Source: a virus. From it: a stretch of DNA of 42,627 nt. The notes under the pieces are model-generated. The model did not search any database, was not told where the DNA came from, and was given only the letters and a program-made list of their open reading frames with translations. The position numbers and the translations under genes were made by a program. The stretch lies in UHGV virus genome UHGV-0123675; one strand, 5' to 3'. This document shows positions 10,082 through 41,918 of this stretch, piece after piece. Every line of letters begins with the position of its first letter. Positions within the stretch are counted from its first letter, which is position 1.

Positions 10082-10447
10082 ATGCGTGATATTCAGATGG
10101 TTTTAGATCGCTGGGGGGGCTGGGCATCAGCTGATAATTCTGGTGTTGACTATTCCCATATTGCCGCTGGCTTCAAGGGACTTTTACCGCAGACAAGCAA
10201 AACCAGATTGTCATGTACAGATGATGATGCGCTTATCATCGAAGGTTGCCTAGCACGACTAAAAAGCCGAAAGCCATATGAGCATTCGCTTCTTGTCGCT
10301 CATTACCTGTACGGTATCTCGAAGAGGAAGATAGCTAAAGCGCGAAAGAAGGATGAGAAACTGATACGAATTGAGATACAGATGGCTGAGGGGTTTATTG
10401 ATGGTTGCCTCTCGATGCTAGATATTCGGCTAGAAATGGATTTATAG
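10082..10447 (+). CDS. Q: Late-gene antitermination protein Q
   Basis: MRDIQMVLDRWGGWA...IAAGFKGL...DDDALIIEGCLARLK...AEGFIDGCLSMLD pattern typical of the ~120-aa Q family of enterobacterial lambdoid prophages; located before lysis region. Confidence 0.75.
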   Translation: MRDIQMVLDRWGGWASADNSGVDYSHIAAGFKGLLPQTSKTRLSCTDDDALIIEGCLARLKSRKPYEHSLLVAHYLYGISKRKIAKARKKDEKLIRIEIQMAEGFIDGCLSMLDIRLEMDL

Positions 10448-10453
10448 AAAGAC

Positions 10454-10482
10454 AAAAAAGCGGGTTTTAATCCGCTTTTTTG
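10454..10482. terminator. Bidirectional rho-independent terminator between Q and the convergent cargo operon
   Basis: AAAAAAGCGG-gttttaat-CCGCTTTTTT: GC stem flanked by A-run and T-run. Confidence 0.6.
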
Positions 10483-10979
10483 TTTAATGAATCTATGAAC
10501 TCTTTTGTTTTTTTATTATTTTCAGCTCGATGTAATAAGATGCTTTTGAATCGCTGTATTTCGCTATTTATAGAGCTGATAAAAAAGAAAGAATACAGTG
10601 AGGCCGCAATCCCTCCACCGCAGGATGATATGAAATACAAGTAACTCATTGAGTTTTTTGGTATGGCAAACATACCAATTGCTCCTGAAAAAGCAGCCAA
10701 GAGATAAAAAATAATTAAAAATGCGAGGTGTCTTTTTTTTATATCGATAATTGGTCGTAATCTTCTAAGTTCACTATCGGATAATGATATATTTTCGTCA
10801 GCTTCAGACACCTTGAAAAATGCTGCAATGCAATAGCTGAAAGGAAATGCCAGTAAGGTTATGAGTGACCATGGTGCAGAAGTACCACTTAAGTCGATTT
10901 TTTTGGAAGCAAAATAAAAAACAATAAAGCCAATAATAAAGGCGGAAAAGAATCTTAATATAAATTTAAAGAAACTCAT
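10467..10979 (-). CDS. Hypothetical small membrane protein (170 aa, about four predicted TM helices), second gene of cargo operon
   Basis: Four hydrophobic stretches (FSAFIIGFIVFYFA, LITLLAFPFSYCIAAFF, LAFLIIFYLLAAFSGAIGMFAI, ASLYSFFFISSI); 18 nt downstream of the 394-aa gene; AT-rich. Confidence 0.6.
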   Translation of the reverse strand: MSFFKFILRFFSAFIIGFIVFYFASKKIDLSGTSAPWSLITLLAFPFSYCIAAFFKVSEADENISLSDSELRRLRPIIDIKKRHLAFLIIFYLLAAFSGAIGMFAIPKNSMSYLYFISSCGGGIAASLYSFFFISSINSEIQRFKSILLHRAENNKKTKEFIDSLNKKAD

Positions 10980-10997
10980 CTCCGCCTCCCAATAAAT

Positions 10998-12182
10998 TTA
11001 GTTTTTAACTTTTACTTCTCCAGTTTGAACCTTTGAAGCTAACCATTTGTGCATTTGTAAATATAAGTCATTTTCATCAATAAGTCCATTATTATATTGG
11101 ACATTTATTTTTCCAGATAGTTTCAGATCGCTTCCTTTAATAACCCCTCCACCTTGTAGATTGATGCTGATATCTTCATCATCTAAATTCCGGAGTGATG
11201 TCGCCAAAGTATCGAGCACACGCTGTCCATCTTTATTTGTTTTTCGGAAATAAGTTATTTCTAAGTTGACTTGTAAATTTGACTCGTCAAGAGAATCTTC
11301 AAGTTGTAAATTATTAAACCATCCTTCACCAAAAGCGGCTTTCATTATATCACCGCCTTTTCCTGTAGGCATAAATTTAATCTTTTTGACCTTTTCTAAC
11401 GGTTCCCTAGTATTTACAGGAAGGTCAAGTGGGTCGCTAATGTTTTTTAAAGTTACAACGTCATTTGAATCTGCGTTTTTGATTGGTACACTTCCAAGAT
11501 TTATTTTCTTTACAGGGGACTCGTGCATTTTTCTTATGGTGTCCTCTGTCGGTTTATCTTGAAGGACAAGAAAATCATCACCATTAAAGATGTTGCCGAA
11601 TGAATGTATTAACCAATTCAGATGGTTTTCTATATCCTTAGTTCTAAGGGAAGATGATTGAACGATCATCACGTGATTGTCACGAATGCCAAAGTAAAGT
11701 ATTGAATCAACGAATTCTCTTGTTATTTTTTCTTTGTCATGTTCACTTATTGCATCATCTTCGGCTAGCTTTATCTGCTTCGAAGTTATAGCGTTGATGT
11801 CATAGTAATTGACATCATCAGCGATTGTCATAAGAGTTTGGCTTTTACCCTGCTCAAATAAAATAAGTTGTCCGAATAACACTGTTTTGAATGTACTGCT
11901 TCGGTTTACCATTCTGAAACCGCTGTTACTATCAGAAGGATTAATCTGCTCCCTGCGGGTGCTGACTTTGTGAGCAGTGCCATTCTCAGAAATTATTGAG
12001 TCAATGATCTGCTGAAGCGTTGCTGTGCAGTTAGGAATGACCGCGCGTTTATATTGAATGACCTTGCTGCGACTTTCTTTCATTAGCCTTGTTCCTTGTC
12101 TCGTGAACGTAACCATCTGATTAGGTTGATTTTGTTTTGTTGTAATCAACATGGCTAGTAGACGGTAACTGTCTGTAAACAA
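10998..12182 (-). CDS. Hypothetical protein (394 aa), first gene of cargo operon
   Basis: Long AT-rich ORF, no recognised motif by eye; sits in the Q-to-lysis moron hotspot. Confidence 0.6.
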   Translation of the reverse strand: MFTDSYRLLAMLITTKQNQPNQMVTFTRQGTRLMKESRSKVIQYKRAVIPNCTATLQQIIDSIISENGTAHKVSTRREQINPSDSNSGFRMVNRSSTFKTVLFGQLILFEQGKSQTLMTIADDVNYYDINAITSKQIKLAEDDAISEHDKEKITREFVDSILYFGIRDNHVMIVQSSSLRTKDIENHLNWLIHSFGNIFNGDDFLVLQDKPTEDTIRKMHESPVKKINLGSVPIKNADSNDVVTLKNISDPLDLPVNTREPLEKVKKIKFMPTGKGGDIMKAAFGEGWFNNLQLEDSLDESNLQVNLEITYFRKTNKDGQRVLDTLATSLRNLDDEDISINLQGGGVIKGSDLKLSGKINVQYNNGLIDENDLYLQMHKWLASKVQTGEVKVKN

Positions 12183-12278
12183 TAAGATAAATCAAAAAAT
12201 TCAAAAAAGCATTAACGCGGTCCGCATTTTCTAGATTACTGTGTTAAGAGTGGTCACTTAGACACGAACTTAAGCATT

Positions 12279-12306
12279 CCGCACCTCGCTTCGGCGGGTT
12301 TTTTTA
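12279..12306 (+). terminator. Putative rho-independent terminator (plus strand) in cargo intergenic region
   Basis: CCGCACCTCGCTTCGGCGGG hairpin followed by TTTTTTTAT. Confidence 0.4.
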
Positions 12307-12385
12307 TGTCTTTTGCAAAGACTTCTTGCTGCTGTTTACAACCAGAGTTATCTGTATGTCACGCATATAATTTTAGGTAAAAGAC

Positions 12386-12577
12386 ATGCTAAATCAGGAA
12401 GATATGACAGAAACCGCGAAGGCTGTTTTCAATGAGTTAAGCGATAAACCAGCAACGGCTGGGGAGATTGCACAGAATACCCACCTAAGCCGCGAACGTT
12501 GCCAGCTCATCCTCACGCAACTGGTGATGGCGGGGTTATCTGATTATCAGTTTGGATGTTATAAGCGTCCCAATTAA
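12386..12577 (+). CDS. Small winged-helix-like putative regulator (63 aa; PapI/FaeA-like, tentative)
   Basis: ATAGEIAQNTHLSRERCQLILTQLVMAGL resembles the helix-turn-helix of small PapI-type regulators; AGGT RBS. Confidence 0.4.
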   Translation: MLNQEDMTETAKAVFNELSDKPATAGEIAQNTHLSRERCQLILTQLVMAGLSDYQFGCYKRPN

Positions 12578-12922
12578 TGGAGGCTGTTTTTATCTCTAGA
12601 TAGTGTTATTTAAATCAATTGGTTAGTGATTTTCTATTTCTGACTTAAAACTCATTTTTGAGATAACTCATTAGCGAGTAGGATTTTTACCCTACGACAC
12701 ATGGGGTTGTCACGGGCTTTTAATGTCCTCGCTATGCTGCGGGACTGCTGGCGTGTTGCACCTCCCATGCCCTGACGGGCATAAAACAACCAGGCACATG
12801 CTGTGCACACATATAAGGGCTGCTGTGCAAATGCTGATCTTTTGTGAGTGATGTGTTGAATTAATGCTGGTTATTTGAGATTTTATTTTCTTATTCATTA
12901 AAATAGGATAACAGGAGAGCTC

Positions 12923-13189
12923 ATGAACCCCCCCTATGAATTCAGCGTTTACTACGACAAGTTAACGCTAGAGGATATTAACAATGTTGTGGCCTTGGTC
13001 GACCGCAATTTCAAGTTCAACTATCCCGGCACTCGCACATCTGTCACTTTTAACTCTACGTTTTCCAGTGTTGGTATTTCTGTACATAGTACGAGACAAG
13101 TTGCTGAAATGATTAAAGAAAACATACTATCTCGACATAAAGGATGTACTCTCCGCAAAGATGTTCATGAGTCGAAAAGAACTTTTTAG
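12923..13189 (+). CDS. Hypothetical protein (88 aa)
   Basis: ORF with GGAG RBS 6 nt upstream; AT-rich; no recognised motif. Confidence 0.4.
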   Translation: MNPPYEFSVYYDKLTLEDINNVVALVDRNFKFNYPGTRTSVTFNSTFSSVGISVHSTRQVAEMIKENILSRHKGCTLRKDVHESKRTF

Positions 13190-13583
13190 CTCCTAACTCA
13201 TTTCGTTATCAATCGGTATGTTGGGTGTTAGATAGTACCATCACAAGGCTACAAATGGTTGACAATAAAGCCTTCTAGTCAGAAGGCCGCATGATATTTC
13301 CGACAATATATGGGGTTAGTTGGAACCTCATCTACCCGGGCGCTAAGGCACCCAGGAACAGCGAAAGATAATCAGCTGTTTATCGATATCTAGACAATTA
13401 ACTACCAGTTTAATCATGCTGCCGCCATATCCATGGCGGCTTTCTGCTGTGAAAATGGGCGGCTGGTGGGTGTTGTAGCACCCGGCCAGCCATCAGCTCA
13501 TGCTTTCAGGTCACAAGCTAACCAAGGCCCACTGCTTTAGCGCAAAAGCAACGTGAGCCTATCAGAGTTACGCTTACTGATCT

Positions 13584-14635
13584 ATGAAAAATACTGTAAA
13601 AATAAACAGTATTGAGTTAATCAACGCTGATAGCCTGCATTACGTCGCCACCCTCCCGGATAACTCTATTGATCTGATAGTTACGGATCCGCCGTACTTC
13701 AAAGTGAAGCCCAACGGCTGGGACAACCAATGGAAGGGGGACGAGGACTACTTACGCTGGCTTGATAGCTGTCTGGCTGAGTATGCTCGCGTTCTTAAAC
13801 CTGCTGGCAGCATTTACCTGTTTTGCGGTCACCGACTGGCCTCAGATATAGAGATTATGATGCGTGCCCGGTTCAACGTTTTGAATCACATCATTTGGGC
13901 AAAACCATCGGGCCGTTGGAATGGATGTAATAAAGAAAGCCTGCGCGCGTACTTTCCATCTACGGAACGGATTTTGTTTGCTGAGCACTATCTTGGGCCG
14001 TACACAGGTAAAGAGGATGTTTACGAAAGGAAAAGCACAGAGCTAAAGCAGCACATTATGACGCCGCTGATTGATTACTTCCGTAATGCCCGTGAATCAC
14101 TGGGTGTCAGCTCGAAAGAAATAGCTGAGGCAACCGGAAAAAAAAACATGGCGTCACACTGGTTTGGTGCAAGCCAATGGCAACTACCAAATGAAGTGGA
14201 CTATAGAAAATTGCAGGAACTGTTCACGCGGATCGCTATCGATAAGCACATTCAGTTGAAGCTTGAACATCCTCACCACCAGCTGGTGGCTACCTATCAG
14301 TCATTAAACCGCAAGTATTGAGAATTGCTGGAGGAATACAAAACCCTCCGGCGCTGCTTCTCTGTTTCCGCTCTTGTTCCGTATACCGACGTATGGACGC
14401 ATAAGCCTGTTCAGTTTTATCCGGGCAAACATCCATGCGAAAAACCTGCCGACATGCTGAAGCAGATCATTAGCGCCAGCAGCAGACCAGGGGATATCGT
14501 TGCCGATTTCTTTATGGGCTCTGGTTCAACTGTGAAAGCTGCAATAGAACTTGGCCGTCGGCGATCGGGGTAGAACTGGAAGCTGACAGATTTATTCAGA
14601 CCACCGAAGAGGTGGAAAAACTGAGCAAAACATAA
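13584..14635 (+). pseudogene. DNA methyltransferase (DPPY motif IV ... FxGSG motif I, N4/N6 beta-class type) disrupted by an in-frame TGA and a downstream frameshift
   Basis: ORF 13584-14321 (LIVTDPPYF) and ORF 14325-14573 (HPCEKP..DIVADFFMGSGST) are in the same frame separated by TGA at 14319-14321; the expected C-terminus (IGVELEADRFIQTTEEVEKLSKT) continues in another frame from about 14564. Confidence 0.65.
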
Positions 14636-14781
14636 CGATCATCCCGCCCCTGTGGATGTGGTGATCACCATTTTCAGGCACCGGGAATCATCCTTACTTT
14701 TATTTGAACAAAAGAGCCCGGTTGCCTGATTCCACATCCCCTCATTTCTGAGAGGAATCACAGCAATTAAGAGGGGGCTAA

Positions 14782-15168
14782 ATGTCCGATCCGATTTCCG
14801 GTACTGGGCTGGCTGGTGGTGTCCTGACGGGAGCCAGCGTCTATGGATTTCTGTCCGGAACCGATTATGGTGTGGTGTTTGGCGCATTTGCTGGGGCTGT
14901 ATTTTACATTGCAACCGCAGCGGATCTAAGTGCAGCGCGCCGACTGGCATATTTTCTGGTTTCGTATATCGCGGGGATCCTTTGTTCCGGGCTGGTGGGT
15001 TCAAAGCTGGCTCAGGCTACCGGCTACAGTGATAAACCACTGGATGCCATTGGCGCCGTAATCGTTTCTGCTTTAGCCGTCAAAATCTTGACGTTCCTGA
15101 ATAATCAGGATGTCGGCTCGCTGGTGGCGCTGATAACGCGCCGGGGAGGTTCAGGTGGTACAAAATGA
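14782..15168 (+). CDS. Putative holin (multi-TM small membrane protein)
   Basis: 128-aa protein with three hydrophobic helices and charged C-terminus, strong RBS AGAGGGGG, first gene of lysis cassette. Confidence 0.55.
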   Translation: MSDPISGTGLAGGVLTGASVYGFLSGTDYGVVFGAFAGAVFYIATAADLSAARRLAYFLVSYIAGILCSGLVGSKLAQATGYSDKPLDAIGAVIVSALAVKILTFLNNQDVGSLVALITRRGGSGGTK

Positions 15169-15436
15169 CCCATCGGCAACTTTAAATGCATTGCTTTGCG
15201 CTGGGGTAGTGCTGACCCTGATGTTTTATCGCCGTGGCGATTCGCGACATCGACCATGGATATCTCGCCTGGCGTGGCTGCTTACGGTCATCTACAGCGC
15301 AGTTCCGCTGGCATATCTGTGCGGTATCTACCCTTATTCATCGTGGGCCACTATCGGGGCCAACATTATTTTCCTGTCTGTGCTGGTCGCCGTCAGAGGC
15401 AACGTGGCACGCCTGGTTGATCATCTGAGGCAATAA
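15155..15436 (+). CDS. Holin/antiholin-like small membrane protein
   Basis: 93-aa protein with 2-3 hydrophobic helices between holin and endolysin, overlapping both. Confidence 0.45.
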   Translation: MVQNDPSATLNALLCAGVVLTLMFYRRGDSRHRPWISRLAWLLTVIYSAVPLAYLCGIYPYSSWATIGANIIFLSVLVAVRGNVARLVDHLRQ

Positions 15437-16053
15437 TGAACCAATCACAATTTCAGCAGGCGGCTGGTATCAGCGCCGGGCTTTCTGCACGCTGGTTTCC
15501 GCACATTGATGCGGCAATGAAAGAGTTTGGAATCACAGCAGTTAACGATCAGGCCATGTTCATTGCACAAGTTGGGCATGAATCTGCTGGTTTTACCTCG
15601 TTGGTCGAGAGCTTCAACTACTCGGTAGACGGGCTGAAGAAAACCTTTGGTAAACGCCTGACGCCGTATCAGTGTGAAATGCTGGGGCGTGTCGATAGTA
15701 AGCAGGTGGCCCACCAGCCGCAAATAGCCAATCTGGTTTATGGTGACCGCATGGGGAATAACAGCCAGGGTGACGGCTGGAAATATCGCGGTCGTGGCCT
15801 GCTTCAAATCACCGGTCGCGAGAACTACGCCAAATGCGGTGCTGCGCTGAAGCTTGATCTGATCAGCACACCAGAGTTGCTGACACAGGAGAAGCATGCA
15901 GCCCGTTCTGCTGCATGGTATTTCACATTACGTGGTTGTCTGATGTACTCAGGTGATGTTGTCCGTGTAACGCAGATCATCAATGGTGGCCAGAATGGAC
16001 TGGCTGACAGAAATAGTCGTTATAACAAAGCGCGGGCGGCGTTGCTGGTATGA
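15436..16053 (+). CDS. Endolysin, glycoside hydrolase family 19 (chitinase-like) type
   Basis: [10 protein letters not shown] ... [13 protein letters not shown] signature of GH19-type phage endolysins; between holin and Rz. Confidence 0.85.
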
Positions 16054-36998: not shown

Positions 36999-37856
36999 TT
37001 ATTTACCTATAAGAGAGACCTTTAATCTTCTTAATAAAGTAATTACATCTTTCCTTCCGAATAGTTTAAACAGATTAAACCAGCGGTTCTTACCCAGGTA
37101 ATTTAGTTTTATTAATTTAGGGTTGTAATGATAGCACATTATAAAAAAACCCTGATCGTCATCAACTATATTATTTCTGAGTGTTTTTATTTGGCACTGA
37201 CAAACCAGTTTGTAAAACTCTTTCCATTTCTTTTGTGTTGCTACAATTGCCCCACCAATAATATAGGAACGATTGTTAATCATGTGGTCAAAAACCTGAT
37301 GGATAGTTTTGACGGCCAAGCCTTTTTTAACTGTAAAGAAATTTACTTTGTTGCGGTCAAATGGATAGTCCCATCGAGATAACCCTCTGGTTACGTCTGC
37401 ACTGCGACAGTAACCAAAGTCAACCCATGCAACCATATCATCATTCACAAGATTTAACTCTATAGCTCTGTTTACAAAATATGTTTTCAGATTGCAAACC
37501 AGTGCATAGTCTGGGGACCAGTATTCGGGGTTTATCAACTGGCGAGTTTCAAGTTTGCTTATGAACTCGTTATCTTTTTGAATCCGCGCAATTATTTTTT
37601 TGATGTGTTGAAATTTTTTATTAATATCTAAAGCCACTACAACAGTATTTTTCCCATTTCTGATTGCTTCAATTTTTGGTTTAAGTTCACTGGATGTGAA
37701 AATGACCATGTCATTATCCAATTCAGACAGATTTTCAAAGTACTGAATATAGGTATCAGCTGTTCTCTCTAAGTGAGGAGAGAAACCTTTATTACTCGTC
37801 CAGTCTCCTCGTCCTATATCGAAAAATGCTGTAACAATGGTAATAGATGAGTTCAT
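36999..37856 (-). CDS. HtrL/YibB-family-like protein (285 aa; tentative), AT-rich cargo gene
   Basis: N-terminus SITIVTAFFDIGRGDW resembles the conserved start of HtrL/YibB-family proteins; AT-rich, minus strand downstream of tail fibre genes. Confidence 0.5.
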   Translation of the reverse strand: MNSSITIVTAFFDIGRGDWTSNKGFSPHLERTADTYIQYFENLSELDNDMVIFTSSELKPKIEAIRNGKNTVVVALDINKKFQHIKKIIARIQKDNEFISKLETRQLINPEYWSPDYALVCNLKTYFVNRAIELNLVNDDMVAWVDFGYCRSADVTRGLSRWDYPFDRNKVNFFTVKKGLAVKTIHQVFDHMINNRSYIIGGAIVATQKKWKEFYKLVCQCQIKTLRNNIVDDDQGFFIMCYHYNPKLIKLNYLGKNRWFNLFKLFGRKDVITLLRRLKVSLIGK

Positions 37857-38659: not shown

Positions 38660-38902
38660 ATGATGCCACGACGTAGCGATATTGAAATAGCCTGGTATGC
38701 TTCGATACAGCAAGAACCGAATGGCCGGAAGACTGTCACCACACAGCGATTTGTCCAGGAACTGAGCAAGGTTAACTGGAACTGGACGATGAAGCAGGCC
38801 AACGAATGGATCGAGTGGTATGTGACAACATTCCGCGATGTATCAACGCAGGAAGGCGAGAACCGTACTTTTCAGTTGTTCAATCCAAACGGAGGACTGT
38901 AG
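38660..38902 (+). CDS. Hypothetical protein (80 aa) co-operonic with UmuD'-like gene
   Basis: ORF with AGAGGGG RBS; stop 2 nt before the UmuD'-like start. Confidence 0.45.
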   Translation: MMPRRSDIEIAWYASIQQEPNGRKTVTTQRFVQELSKVNWNWTMKQANEWIEWYVTTFRDVSTQEGENRTFQLFNPNGGL

Positions 38903-38904
38903 CC

Positions 38905-39294
38905 ATGGGCTTTCCTTCACCTGCCAGTGATTACGTTGAAAAAAGGATTTCGCTCGATCAGCAGCTTATAAGCCAGCCATCAGCAACTTATTTCATGCGG
39001 GCATCACGTTCACATTTCAGGGAAGGAATACTACAGGGGGCGCTGCTTGTTGTGGATGCGTCACTTACTGCCTGTGATGGCTCATTGCTGATATGTGTAA
39101 TTGACGGGGAATTCAGGATCAAGAGATATCGAAAGCATCCTCAACCCCACCTAATTAATCTGGAGAACGGGAGAAGGGAGGCGCTGCCAGCAGATGATGA
39201 CGGTTACAGTTCTGCACCCGCTATATTCGGGGTGATCACGTACATCATTAATGATGCCAGGAACGCGGAGTTTGATGACTGCCCGGTGATGTGA
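38905..39294 (+). CDS. UmuD'-like protein (S24 peptidase fold, lacks the N-terminal propeptide; HumD-like)
   Basis: GFPSPASDYVEKRISLDQQLISQPSATYF ... DGEF.IK parallels E. coli UmuD residues 25 onward ([29 protein letters not shown]); start ATG 38905 with GGAGGA RBS falls exactly at the UmuD autocleavage site; the longer ORF from 38806 overlaps the upstream gene. Confidence 0.8.
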   Translation: MGFPSPASDYVEKRISLDQQLISQPSATYFMRASRSHFREGILQGALLVVDASLTACDGSLLICVIDGEFRIKRYRKHPQPHLINLENGRREALPADDDGYSSAPAIFGVITYIINDARNAEFDDCPVM

Positions 39295-40823: not shown

Positions 40824-41918
40824 TCAGTCATTAAGGTACTTAGTATTCCCTTCACAAAATCCACAGCCAACCAGTCCACTCATTTCACTAACTGATGTAG
40901 AGCTTCCACCACAGTAGCCGCAAGTACTGATTGAATCATGAAAAACAAGGCAGTTCGTGCACAGATATCCACCTCCGTACTCACATACCGTCTCATAGCC
41001 GTCACAATCGGAACAACTTGCTGGAAGGCCTGAATAACTAATATCTTCTGGTTTGCCGACCCATTCATCCAGCAAATCGTATCTGGATGATGAGTAATTG
41101 CAGTTGTTGCAATTGAAATTCGTTTCACCGGTAGCGTTCAGATCCTGCCTTACTCCGCAACTAGGGCATGTAACTTCGACATAAGGATCAGATCTGCAGC
41201 CGCAGACTAAGCAATTTGCTTCGTGAAGAGTATTTCCTCTCTCCTCATTGATGGATATATCAACGGCAGCATTTTTACTGCAAGCACGACAGTTTGAGAT
41301 CGTGCATCCCTGTTTTCTGAGATCATCGAGTGTAGGCTGTAAATAACGAAATTTTGCATTAGCATAAAACAACGAACTTTCGAGCATACGATCCTCATCT
41401 GATGCCAACTTTGAGTTTAGAGGTTCTCCAAAAAGATAGAACCACTGATCACGCATAAAACGGTTAAGCGCAAACCAAGCGTCAGCCTGTTCATCAAGGA
41501 TTGTCTTCACCTGAGTGTCGGTAAAGTCGGAATGATAAAAATGAACCACACGGTTGCGGTGGTCTTTAACTTTTTTGAATACAGCGATGGTTTCTTTCGG
41601 TAGGGGATTTTGAAGTACATCACCTAACCGCTGACAGGTTTCATCGTATGTGACCGACTGGAAATCACCGGCAAGGTATTTTGCGCGCTCAATTTTCCTC
41701 CCGGAGCACACCAGACTCCAGTGTTCGTGTACTAGCGGCACTTTCAGCATGATCTCTACCGCGGTCCAGAAACTGACAATCGAAAATTTTGGCTTGGAAG
41801 CCTCTAGTTCTTCGCGTGCCTTATCTAGAAACTCCAGACCGTTGTTGATCAGAGCTTGAACGTCTTTAGATACAAACGATTCGTCATTGTACTGGAAGCT
41901 GTATTTTTTATTTTTCAT
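40824..41918 (-). CDS. Hypothetical protein (364 aa) with HEPN-like RNxxxH motif and Cys-rich (multi-CxxC) C-terminal region
   Basis: N-terminal helical region contains KDHRNRVVHFYH (R-N-x3-H); C-terminal ~150 aa contains at least ten CxxC/CxC pairs suggestive of several zinc ribbons. Confidence 0.55.
   Translation of the reverse strand: MKNKKYSFQYNDESFVSKDVQALINNGLEFLDKAREELEASKPKFSIVSFWTAVEIMLKVPLVHEHWSLVCSGRKIERAKYLAGDFQSVTYDETCQRLGDVLQNPLPKETIAVFKKVKDHRNRVVHFYHSDFTDTQVKTILDEQADAWFALNRFMRDQWFYLFGEPLNSKLASDEDRMLESSLFYANAKFRYLQPTLDDLRKQGCTISNCRACSKNAAVDISINEERGNTLHEANCLVCGCRSDPYVEVTCPSCGVRQDLNATGETNFNCNNCNYSSSRYDLLDEWVGKPEDISYSGLPASCSDCDGYETVCEYGGGYLCTNCLVFHDSISTCGYCGGSSTSVSEMSGLVGCGFCEGNTKYLND

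Follow-up and report, generated by a model that had tools for sequence, protein, structure and literature searches.

The window, the whole stretch of 42,627 nucleotides that was analysed (virus genome UHGV-0123675), is a prophage of the Citrobacter freundii complex with lambdoid regulation and a contractile tail; proteins identical to its own carry the names C. braakii, C. freundii and C. portucalensis. Between the antitermination gene and the lysis genes lies an interrupted methyltransferase gene preceded by a conserved leader. The order along the window is Q, a reverse-strand gene pair, a 63-aa ORF, an 88-aa ORF, the leader, the interrupted gene, the holins, an endolysin and a spanin-like gene, and the features surrounding the interrupted gene are the following.

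10082-10447, forward strand: antiterminator Q (Pfam Phage_antitermQ, E = 4e-53), which bounds the late regulatory region on the upstream side.
10467-12182, reverse strand: pair of genes of unknown function (PHROGs 16807 and 3482), for a multi-pass membrane protein of 170 aa and a protein of 394 aa.
About 12285-12304: hairpin with a T7 run, terminator-like.
12386-12577: 63-aa DprA_WH-like ORF.
12586-13432: insert of about 850 bp, carrying an 88-aa ORF (12923-13189, without family match) and a hairpin (13421-13440).
13455-13583, forward strand: 5' leader of the methyltransferase gene, about 130 nt, conserved, structured and intact in the window.
14782-16053, forward strand: two holins and a GH19 endolysin (Pfam; full length compared with phage Chris1), directly downstream of the interrupted gene.

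The same order of Q, methyltransferase and holin was found in the prophage of E. coli Nissle and in phage Flotzy. The interrupted gene appears to head a Q-dependent late/lysis operon and, judged from this position, would be expressed late. No tRNA genes were found in the late leader, where Stx phages have them. The segment 12215-12305 is probably a late promoter and early-terminator module, beginning with TTAAGAGTGGTCACTTAGACACGAACTTAAGC and ending in the hairpin and T7 run; in some relatives (e.g. contig L022) it abuts the methyltransferase leader directly. The insertion of about 850 bp is absent from C. murliniae and most relatives and is shared with contig L107. Further cargo was located past the tail-fibre genes, with an HtrL/YibB-family glycosyltransferase-like gene (36999-37856, reverse strand) and a UmuD-like S24 peptidase gene (38806-39294). 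The cargo at the right prophage end includes a gene for a 364-aa protein (40824-41918, reverse strand), assigned by PADLOC to the candidate defence family HEC-08 (E = 4e-163), with a DUF3644 match, and named 'hsdR' in NCBI records.

The methyltransferase coding region is divided over two reading frames and contains the following elements.

13584-14321, forward strand: N-terminal fragment of the apparent methyltransferase pseudogene (ATG, 245 codons and TGA, as in the ORF list).
14138-14146, forward strand: A9 homopolymer, with a silent G>A at 14141 (AAG>AAA, Lys186).
14256-14258, forward strand: Q225L substitution (CAG>TTG), with CA at 14256-14257 in 24 of 24 close alleles.
14319-14321, forward strand: premature TGA, lesion 1, located from alignments with intact alleles.
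14322-14573, forward strand: same-frame continuation with FFMGSGST, ending out of register in TAG (14571-14573) after ...GRRRSG.
14560-14561, forward strand: G run reduced to GG at codon 326, lesion 2 (GGG in all intact alleles).
14561-14635, forward strand: C-terminal tail, now stranded in the -1 frame and reading AIGVELEADRFIQTTEEVEKLSKT and stop, the final 24 codons (from the frame translation).

The N-terminal fragment encodes the first Rossmann half with DPPY (residues 35-38 of the 245-aa ORF), a charged linker and a helix-turn-helix target-recognition domain, and the continuation the beginning of the second Rossmann half including the AdoMet-binding motif. Each half separately matched Pfam N6_N4_Mtase (PF01555), with E = 2.8e-18 over profile positions 1-106 and E = 3.7e-20 over positions 135-205, and the intact homologue of the Nissle prophage gave a single match to the same model (profile 1-215, E = 4.7e-44). 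As both halves match one Pfam model, the split-ORF layout is not due to chance. The sequence-only reading had described a DPPY-containing and an FxGSG-containing ORF in one frame separated by TGA at 14319-14321, and these coordinates were confirmed. Its proposal that the C-terminal tail continues in another frame through a single-base indel also held: the tail is read from 14561, one G having been lost at 14560-14561.

When both lesions were repaired in silico, a protein of 350 aa was obtained with DPPY at residues 35-38 and FMGSGS at residues 310-315, in the circularly permuted order of beta-class enzymes (N-terminal DPPY, central target-recognition domain, C-terminal FxGxG). This protein is approximately 75% identical to M.EcoGII (349 aa) over its full length (348 aligned residues), with only two single-residue gaps, both past residue 270, so that residues 1-270 align without gaps. 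Identity to the reconstructed ancestors Anc291 and Anc289 was 83-85% and to SUPREM 70%; all these identities are approximate, the sequences having been machine-read from Supplementary Table S1 (PDF) of PMC11551740. The accessible part of that paper reports methyltransferase activity for Anc291 and not for Anc289. The methyltransferase of phage 1720a-02, named a close relative of M.EcoGII by Murray et al. 2018 (PMC5778455), is 75.5% identical to the repaired protein. Together with the Pfam matches, the identity to M.EcoGII bears out the earlier assignment as a DNA methyltransferase.

M.EcoGII is encoded by a prophage in E. coli and methylates adenine in any sequence context (PMC5778455). The window copy shares with it the beta-class motif order, the charged linker, the four-helix, helix-turn-helix target-recognition domain, the location on a prophage and the lack of a restriction partner. 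Unlike M.EcoGII, it has a stop at codon 246 and a frameshift at codon 326 that disable it, and its host is Citrobacter instead of E. coli. With its reading frame interrupted at these two codons, the locus is best classified as a pseudogene member of the M.EcoGII family and not as a functional one. By homology, the ancestral enzyme of the window allele probably methylated adenine with little or no sequence specificity, although the REBASE cluster of M.EcoGII also holds the site-specific M.PflMI (PMC11551740). Solved beta-class structures (M.RsrI, 1eg2/1nw5; M.MboIIA, 1g60; CcrM, 6pbd; 8urk/9c3u, 'Methyltransferase') aligned with E values from 1e-13 to 6e-26. They share the Rossmann halves, in that the DPPY block and the FxGxG...G-x-E block align, whereas these enzymes are site-specific, have a low overall identity and match in the two Rossmann halves only. 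The target-recognition domain and linker of the M.EcoGII-type family were covered by none of the solved structures matched.

The window allele was aligned with the intact 350-aa genes of the E. coli Nissle prophage and phage Flotzy, with that of Citrobacter murliniae 24249, and with a set of 24 close alleles of full length, drawn from genomes, metagenomes and IMG/VR (96-99% nucleotide identity). The sequence-only reading had suggested that alignment with intact homologues would pinpoint both lesions, and it did so. Lesion 1 is a C>G change at 14320, turning TCA (Ser246) into TGA. Lesion 2 is a one-base deletion, GGG to GG, in the run now at 14560-14561, which shifts the reading frame at codon 326. 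No interruption was found in any of the 24 close alleles, which have C at 14320 and GGG at the site of lesion 2. Five nucleotide states are private to the window in this comparison: the two lesions, CA>TT at 14256-14257 and G>A at 14141. The CA>TT change yields Q225L, a non-conservative substitution within the target-recognition domain that is private to the window allele. The A9 tract, in frame, results from the silent G>A, where all other alleles have AAAGAAAAA. Runs of A9 are liable to transcriptional or replication slippage; such slippage would be without consequence in a gene that is dead already.

The nearest intact alleles are those of C. murliniae 24249 (L004, 98.1% nucleotide identity to the window), the E. 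coli Nissle 1917 prophage (WP_001704131.1, L001; 96%, an intact 350-aa gene) and IMG/VR contig L093. All three (96-99% nucleotide identity) share the leader and occupy the same place with respect to the holins and the 63-aa ORF, but read TCA, GGG, CAG (Q225) and AAAGAAAAA at the four sites and encode a 350-aa protein without interruption. A pattern scan across lesion 1 of IMG/VR and JGI metagenomes, in which either base was allowed, retrieved 33 contigs. TCA was present in 33 of 33, and GGG and AAAGAAAAA wherever the sequence covered those sites; for GGG this amounts to about 26 contigs, being all that reach the site. The broken allele was thus not found among the pattern matches in these two collections, and the derived states appear restricted to the window's lineage among all alleles examined.

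A competing explanation is that lesion 1, lesion 2 or both are sequencing or assembly artefacts and the true gene is intact. The second lesion alters the length of a short run of G, an error type classic for some platforms, but a run of two or three G is too short to disturb Illumina-type data, and a C>G transversion is atypical as a systematic error. The exact 245-aa product was found on 14 public contigs of differing lengths, which come from both Logan and ENA assemblies. One of these, an ENA scaffold of 464 kb (L003), matches the window without a single difference over 6,738 nt and has both lesions as well as the A9 tract. The frameshift was checked in this contig alone out of the 14; since L003 matches the window completely it might derive from the same clone or reads, and the other contigs may likewise share their origin with the window's reads. 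With both lesions on the ENA scaffold and the truncated product on 14 contigs, a one-off sequencing error is unlikely. The two further private changes, Q225L and A9, are expected for a drifting pseudogene, and the combination of a transversion, GGG>GG and two other private substitutions on one allele is consistent with a real one. Overall, we regard an artefact as highly improbable.

The effect of the lesions was assessed with the published domain map of M.EcoGII (Rossmann fold 1-134 and 260-349, helix-turn-helix target-recognition domain 160-237, charged linker between; PMC11551740) and the ungapped alignment. Because there are no gaps through residue 270, the stop at codon 246 can be placed in the return linker past the DNA-binding domain. 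The 245-aa product keeps the DPPY half and the DNA-binding domain, and the entire AdoMet-binding Rossmann half is absent. The frameshift strips residues 327-350. In this segment G329, E331, T340 and E343 are invariant in 43 of 43 species-level homologues, and V330, L332, E333, R336 and F337 are nearly invariant in the same set; residues 327-350 align with the G-x-E strand that follows FxGxG in the solved beta-class enzymes. The nonsense mutation would thus truncate the enzyme in the linker and remove its AdoMet-binding half. Were the stop read through, the enzyme would still lose its final helix and the invariant G-V-E-L-E strand to the one-base deletion at codon 326. This conservation strongly suggests that enzymatic activity is lost.

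Activity could be retained if the UGA were read through and a -1 frameshift followed, or if a split enzyme were formed by re-initiation at TTG 14325, the earliest start codon available downstream of the TGA in the frame that reopens at 14322. TGA is the leakiest stop codon, and residue 246 is variable across the family (S, L, V, C or M), so that several amino acids would be tolerated there upon readthrough. A -1 slip following CGG (14558-14560) restores exactly ...RRAIGVE. Yet the shift site, CGT CGG CGA, has neither an X XXY YYZ slippery heptamer nor a long homopolymer, and recoding needs two independent low-efficiency events on one molecule. Split C5 methyltransferases consisting of two polypeptides exist, which counts in favour of a split enzyme, and since TTG 14325 sits 3 nt past the stop, re-initiation is conceivable. 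This codon, however, is without a preceding Shine-Dalgarno sequence, and the re-initiated fragment still stops at TAG 14573, without the invariant G329, E331, T340 and E343. Decay had been preferred over recoding from the outset, and the comparison strengthens this preference: neither lesion was seen in any other family copy examined, be it one of the 24 close alleles, the 33 contigs, the roughly 45 homologues at species level or the 98 copies from IMG/VR, and there is consequently no evolutionary signature of recoding. That the gene still works is, of all explanations weighed here, the one to which we give almost no credence. A phase-variable switch in a simple repeat is likewise not supported, since the indel is only GGG>GG, no length variation was seen, and the A9 tract is in frame and private.

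The gene had also been described as an orphan, and no neighbour was found to resemble a restriction enzyme: no restriction endonuclease partner was recognisable among the 63-aa ORF, the 88-aa ORF, the holins, the endolysin and the reverse-strand pair (Pfam, with PADLOC on the 10467-12182 pair). The proteins of this pair had no Pfam or PADLOC match and are of unknown function, which is a caveat on the orphan call. The closely related Citrobacter phage Chris1 is without a methyltransferase in this slot. Its late proteins are mostly 88-100% identical to those of the window (range 66-100%), and the window has each of the 24 Chris1 late genes compared at full length, without interruption. The methyltransferase is therefore an accessory gene, and decay is confined to it.

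Across the family the gene is mostly maintained. A count of segregating sites over the 24 intact close alleles gave 118 synonymous against 42 non-synonymous ones, which indicates purifying selection. The private branch of the window carries one silent and three protein-altering events (Fisher p about 0.06, on 4-5 events only). Of the enterobacterial species-representative loci, about 45 are intact and four broken (about 4/49). Among 106 evaluable IMG/VR loci with the leader, this element precedes an intact methyltransferase gene in 98, a broken one in four and other cargo in four. Decayed relatives in the matching prophage slot were found in Erwinia tracheiphila (L046), Pantoea (L051 and L056), Enterobacter (L054) and four IMG/VR contigs (L151, L201, L203 and L233). 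Their lesions are independent frameshifts, stops, truncations or an interruption; they all differ, and neither lesion of the window allele recurs in any of them. Decay appears to be a recurrent minority outcome of this gene, reached through different lesions each time.

Such recurrence, with independently broken copies at 4-8% of loci, would also be expected if inactivation were selected instead of neutral, either by leaky toxicity in the lysogen or by m6A-dependent Type IV restriction of the progeny. Constitutive expression of M.EcoGII is deleterious, giving slower growth and unstable clones (PMC5778455), and m6A-dependent Type IV enzymes that cut M.EcoGII-modified DNA are described in the accessible part of PMC11037411. 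The very short branch of the window, moreover, bears several protein-altering changes. On the other hand, more than 90% of the copies are intact and under purifying selection, from which the gene is normally beneficial or harmless, and neutral drift past a first hit predicts multiple lesions equally well. Only one concrete incompatibility was tested, that with the 10467-12182 cassette. Sister contig L107 shows the reverse of the window, an intact methyltransferase and a 2-nt deletion in the 394-aa gene (window 11716-11717), a pattern that raised the suspicion of mutual exclusion; coverage of L107 is about 5x, and its deletion may be an assembly error. Incompatibility was rejected as a general rule, as IMG/VR contigs L120 and L142 carry intact homologues of both genes. 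Selected inactivation is accordingly considered unlikely, although it retains more weight than a sequencing artefact.

The 5' leader (13455-13583) is better conserved than the coding sequence: it is near-invariant in about 40 species-level relatives, whose coding region is only 72-80% identical. Its predicted fold has an MFE of -71 kcal/mol (z = -3.8), with helices at 13461-13491, 13495-13498 with 13516-13519, 13525-13529 with 13555-13560, 13534-13538 with 13545-13549, and 13509-13512 with 13579-13582, the latter directly ahead of the start codon. In the five-helix model 95.9% of cells were paired, compared to 27-45% with the partners slid. The pair 13495:13519 covaries cleanly (CG 17, AU 7, UA 4, UG 1, exceptions 0). 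Helix 13509-13512 pairs with GATC immediately 5' of the ATG, and a Shine-Dalgarno sequence is not obvious there. No Rfam match was obtained at E <= 1 over 12100-14800, and the literature searched held nothing relevant on the regulation of M.EcoGII-type genes in Stx phages. A conserved upstream ORF (ATG at 13455, MGGWWVL and stop) was considered and rejected, because its stop codon falls in a hairpin loop that varies and no codon periodicity is seen in the conservation. In IMG/VR contigs L159, L197, L222 and L240 only the first hairpin of the leader is shared, followed by a different cargo gene of about 245 aa; this switch past the first hairpin points to a recombination breakpoint within the leader.

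From its conservation and fold, the leader may be a cis-regulatory RNA or may control the translation of an enzyme that is potentially toxic. It would fit a scenario in which the methyltransferase became a liability in this Citrobacter lineage and its knock-out was adaptive, with 13455-13583 as a dedicated, undescribed cis-regulatory RNA restraining the enzyme; we consider this combined proposal doubtful, and rather more so than selected inactivation in general.

We are highly confident that the locus is a true pseudogene, derived from the phage-borne gene of an orphan N6-adenine DNA methyltransferase (beta class, M.EcoGII family) in a Citrobacter prophage. In intact relatives a 350-aa enzyme would be made from the Q-antiterminated late operon, just upstream of the holins. 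By analogy it would presumably methylate adenines of the progeny phage and shield their DNA from host restriction. Since the gene is accessory its loss would be tolerated, probably as a neutral change. After the first hit, the second lesion, Q225L and the A9 tract could accrue free of constraint.

This is a known family in its usual prophage location, with ordinary accessory-gene loss, and by itself the decay of another accessory ('moron-slot') prophage gene carries little weight. For annotation, the locus is a single M.EcoGII-family pseudogene and not two small methylase ORFs. The leader RNA may hold more interest than the pseudogene. A comparison of lysogen methylomes with and without the locus, as suggested earlier, would probably be uninformative, because M.EcoGII is not expressed in the lysogen (PMC5778455); virion DNA or induced cells would suit instead. 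Virions of the window prophage should be without the dense, non-specific m6A expected in sister phages, and the window allele, set beside the intact alleles that are 98-99% identical to it, offers a natural control for the role of M.EcoGII-type methylation in a temperate phage.
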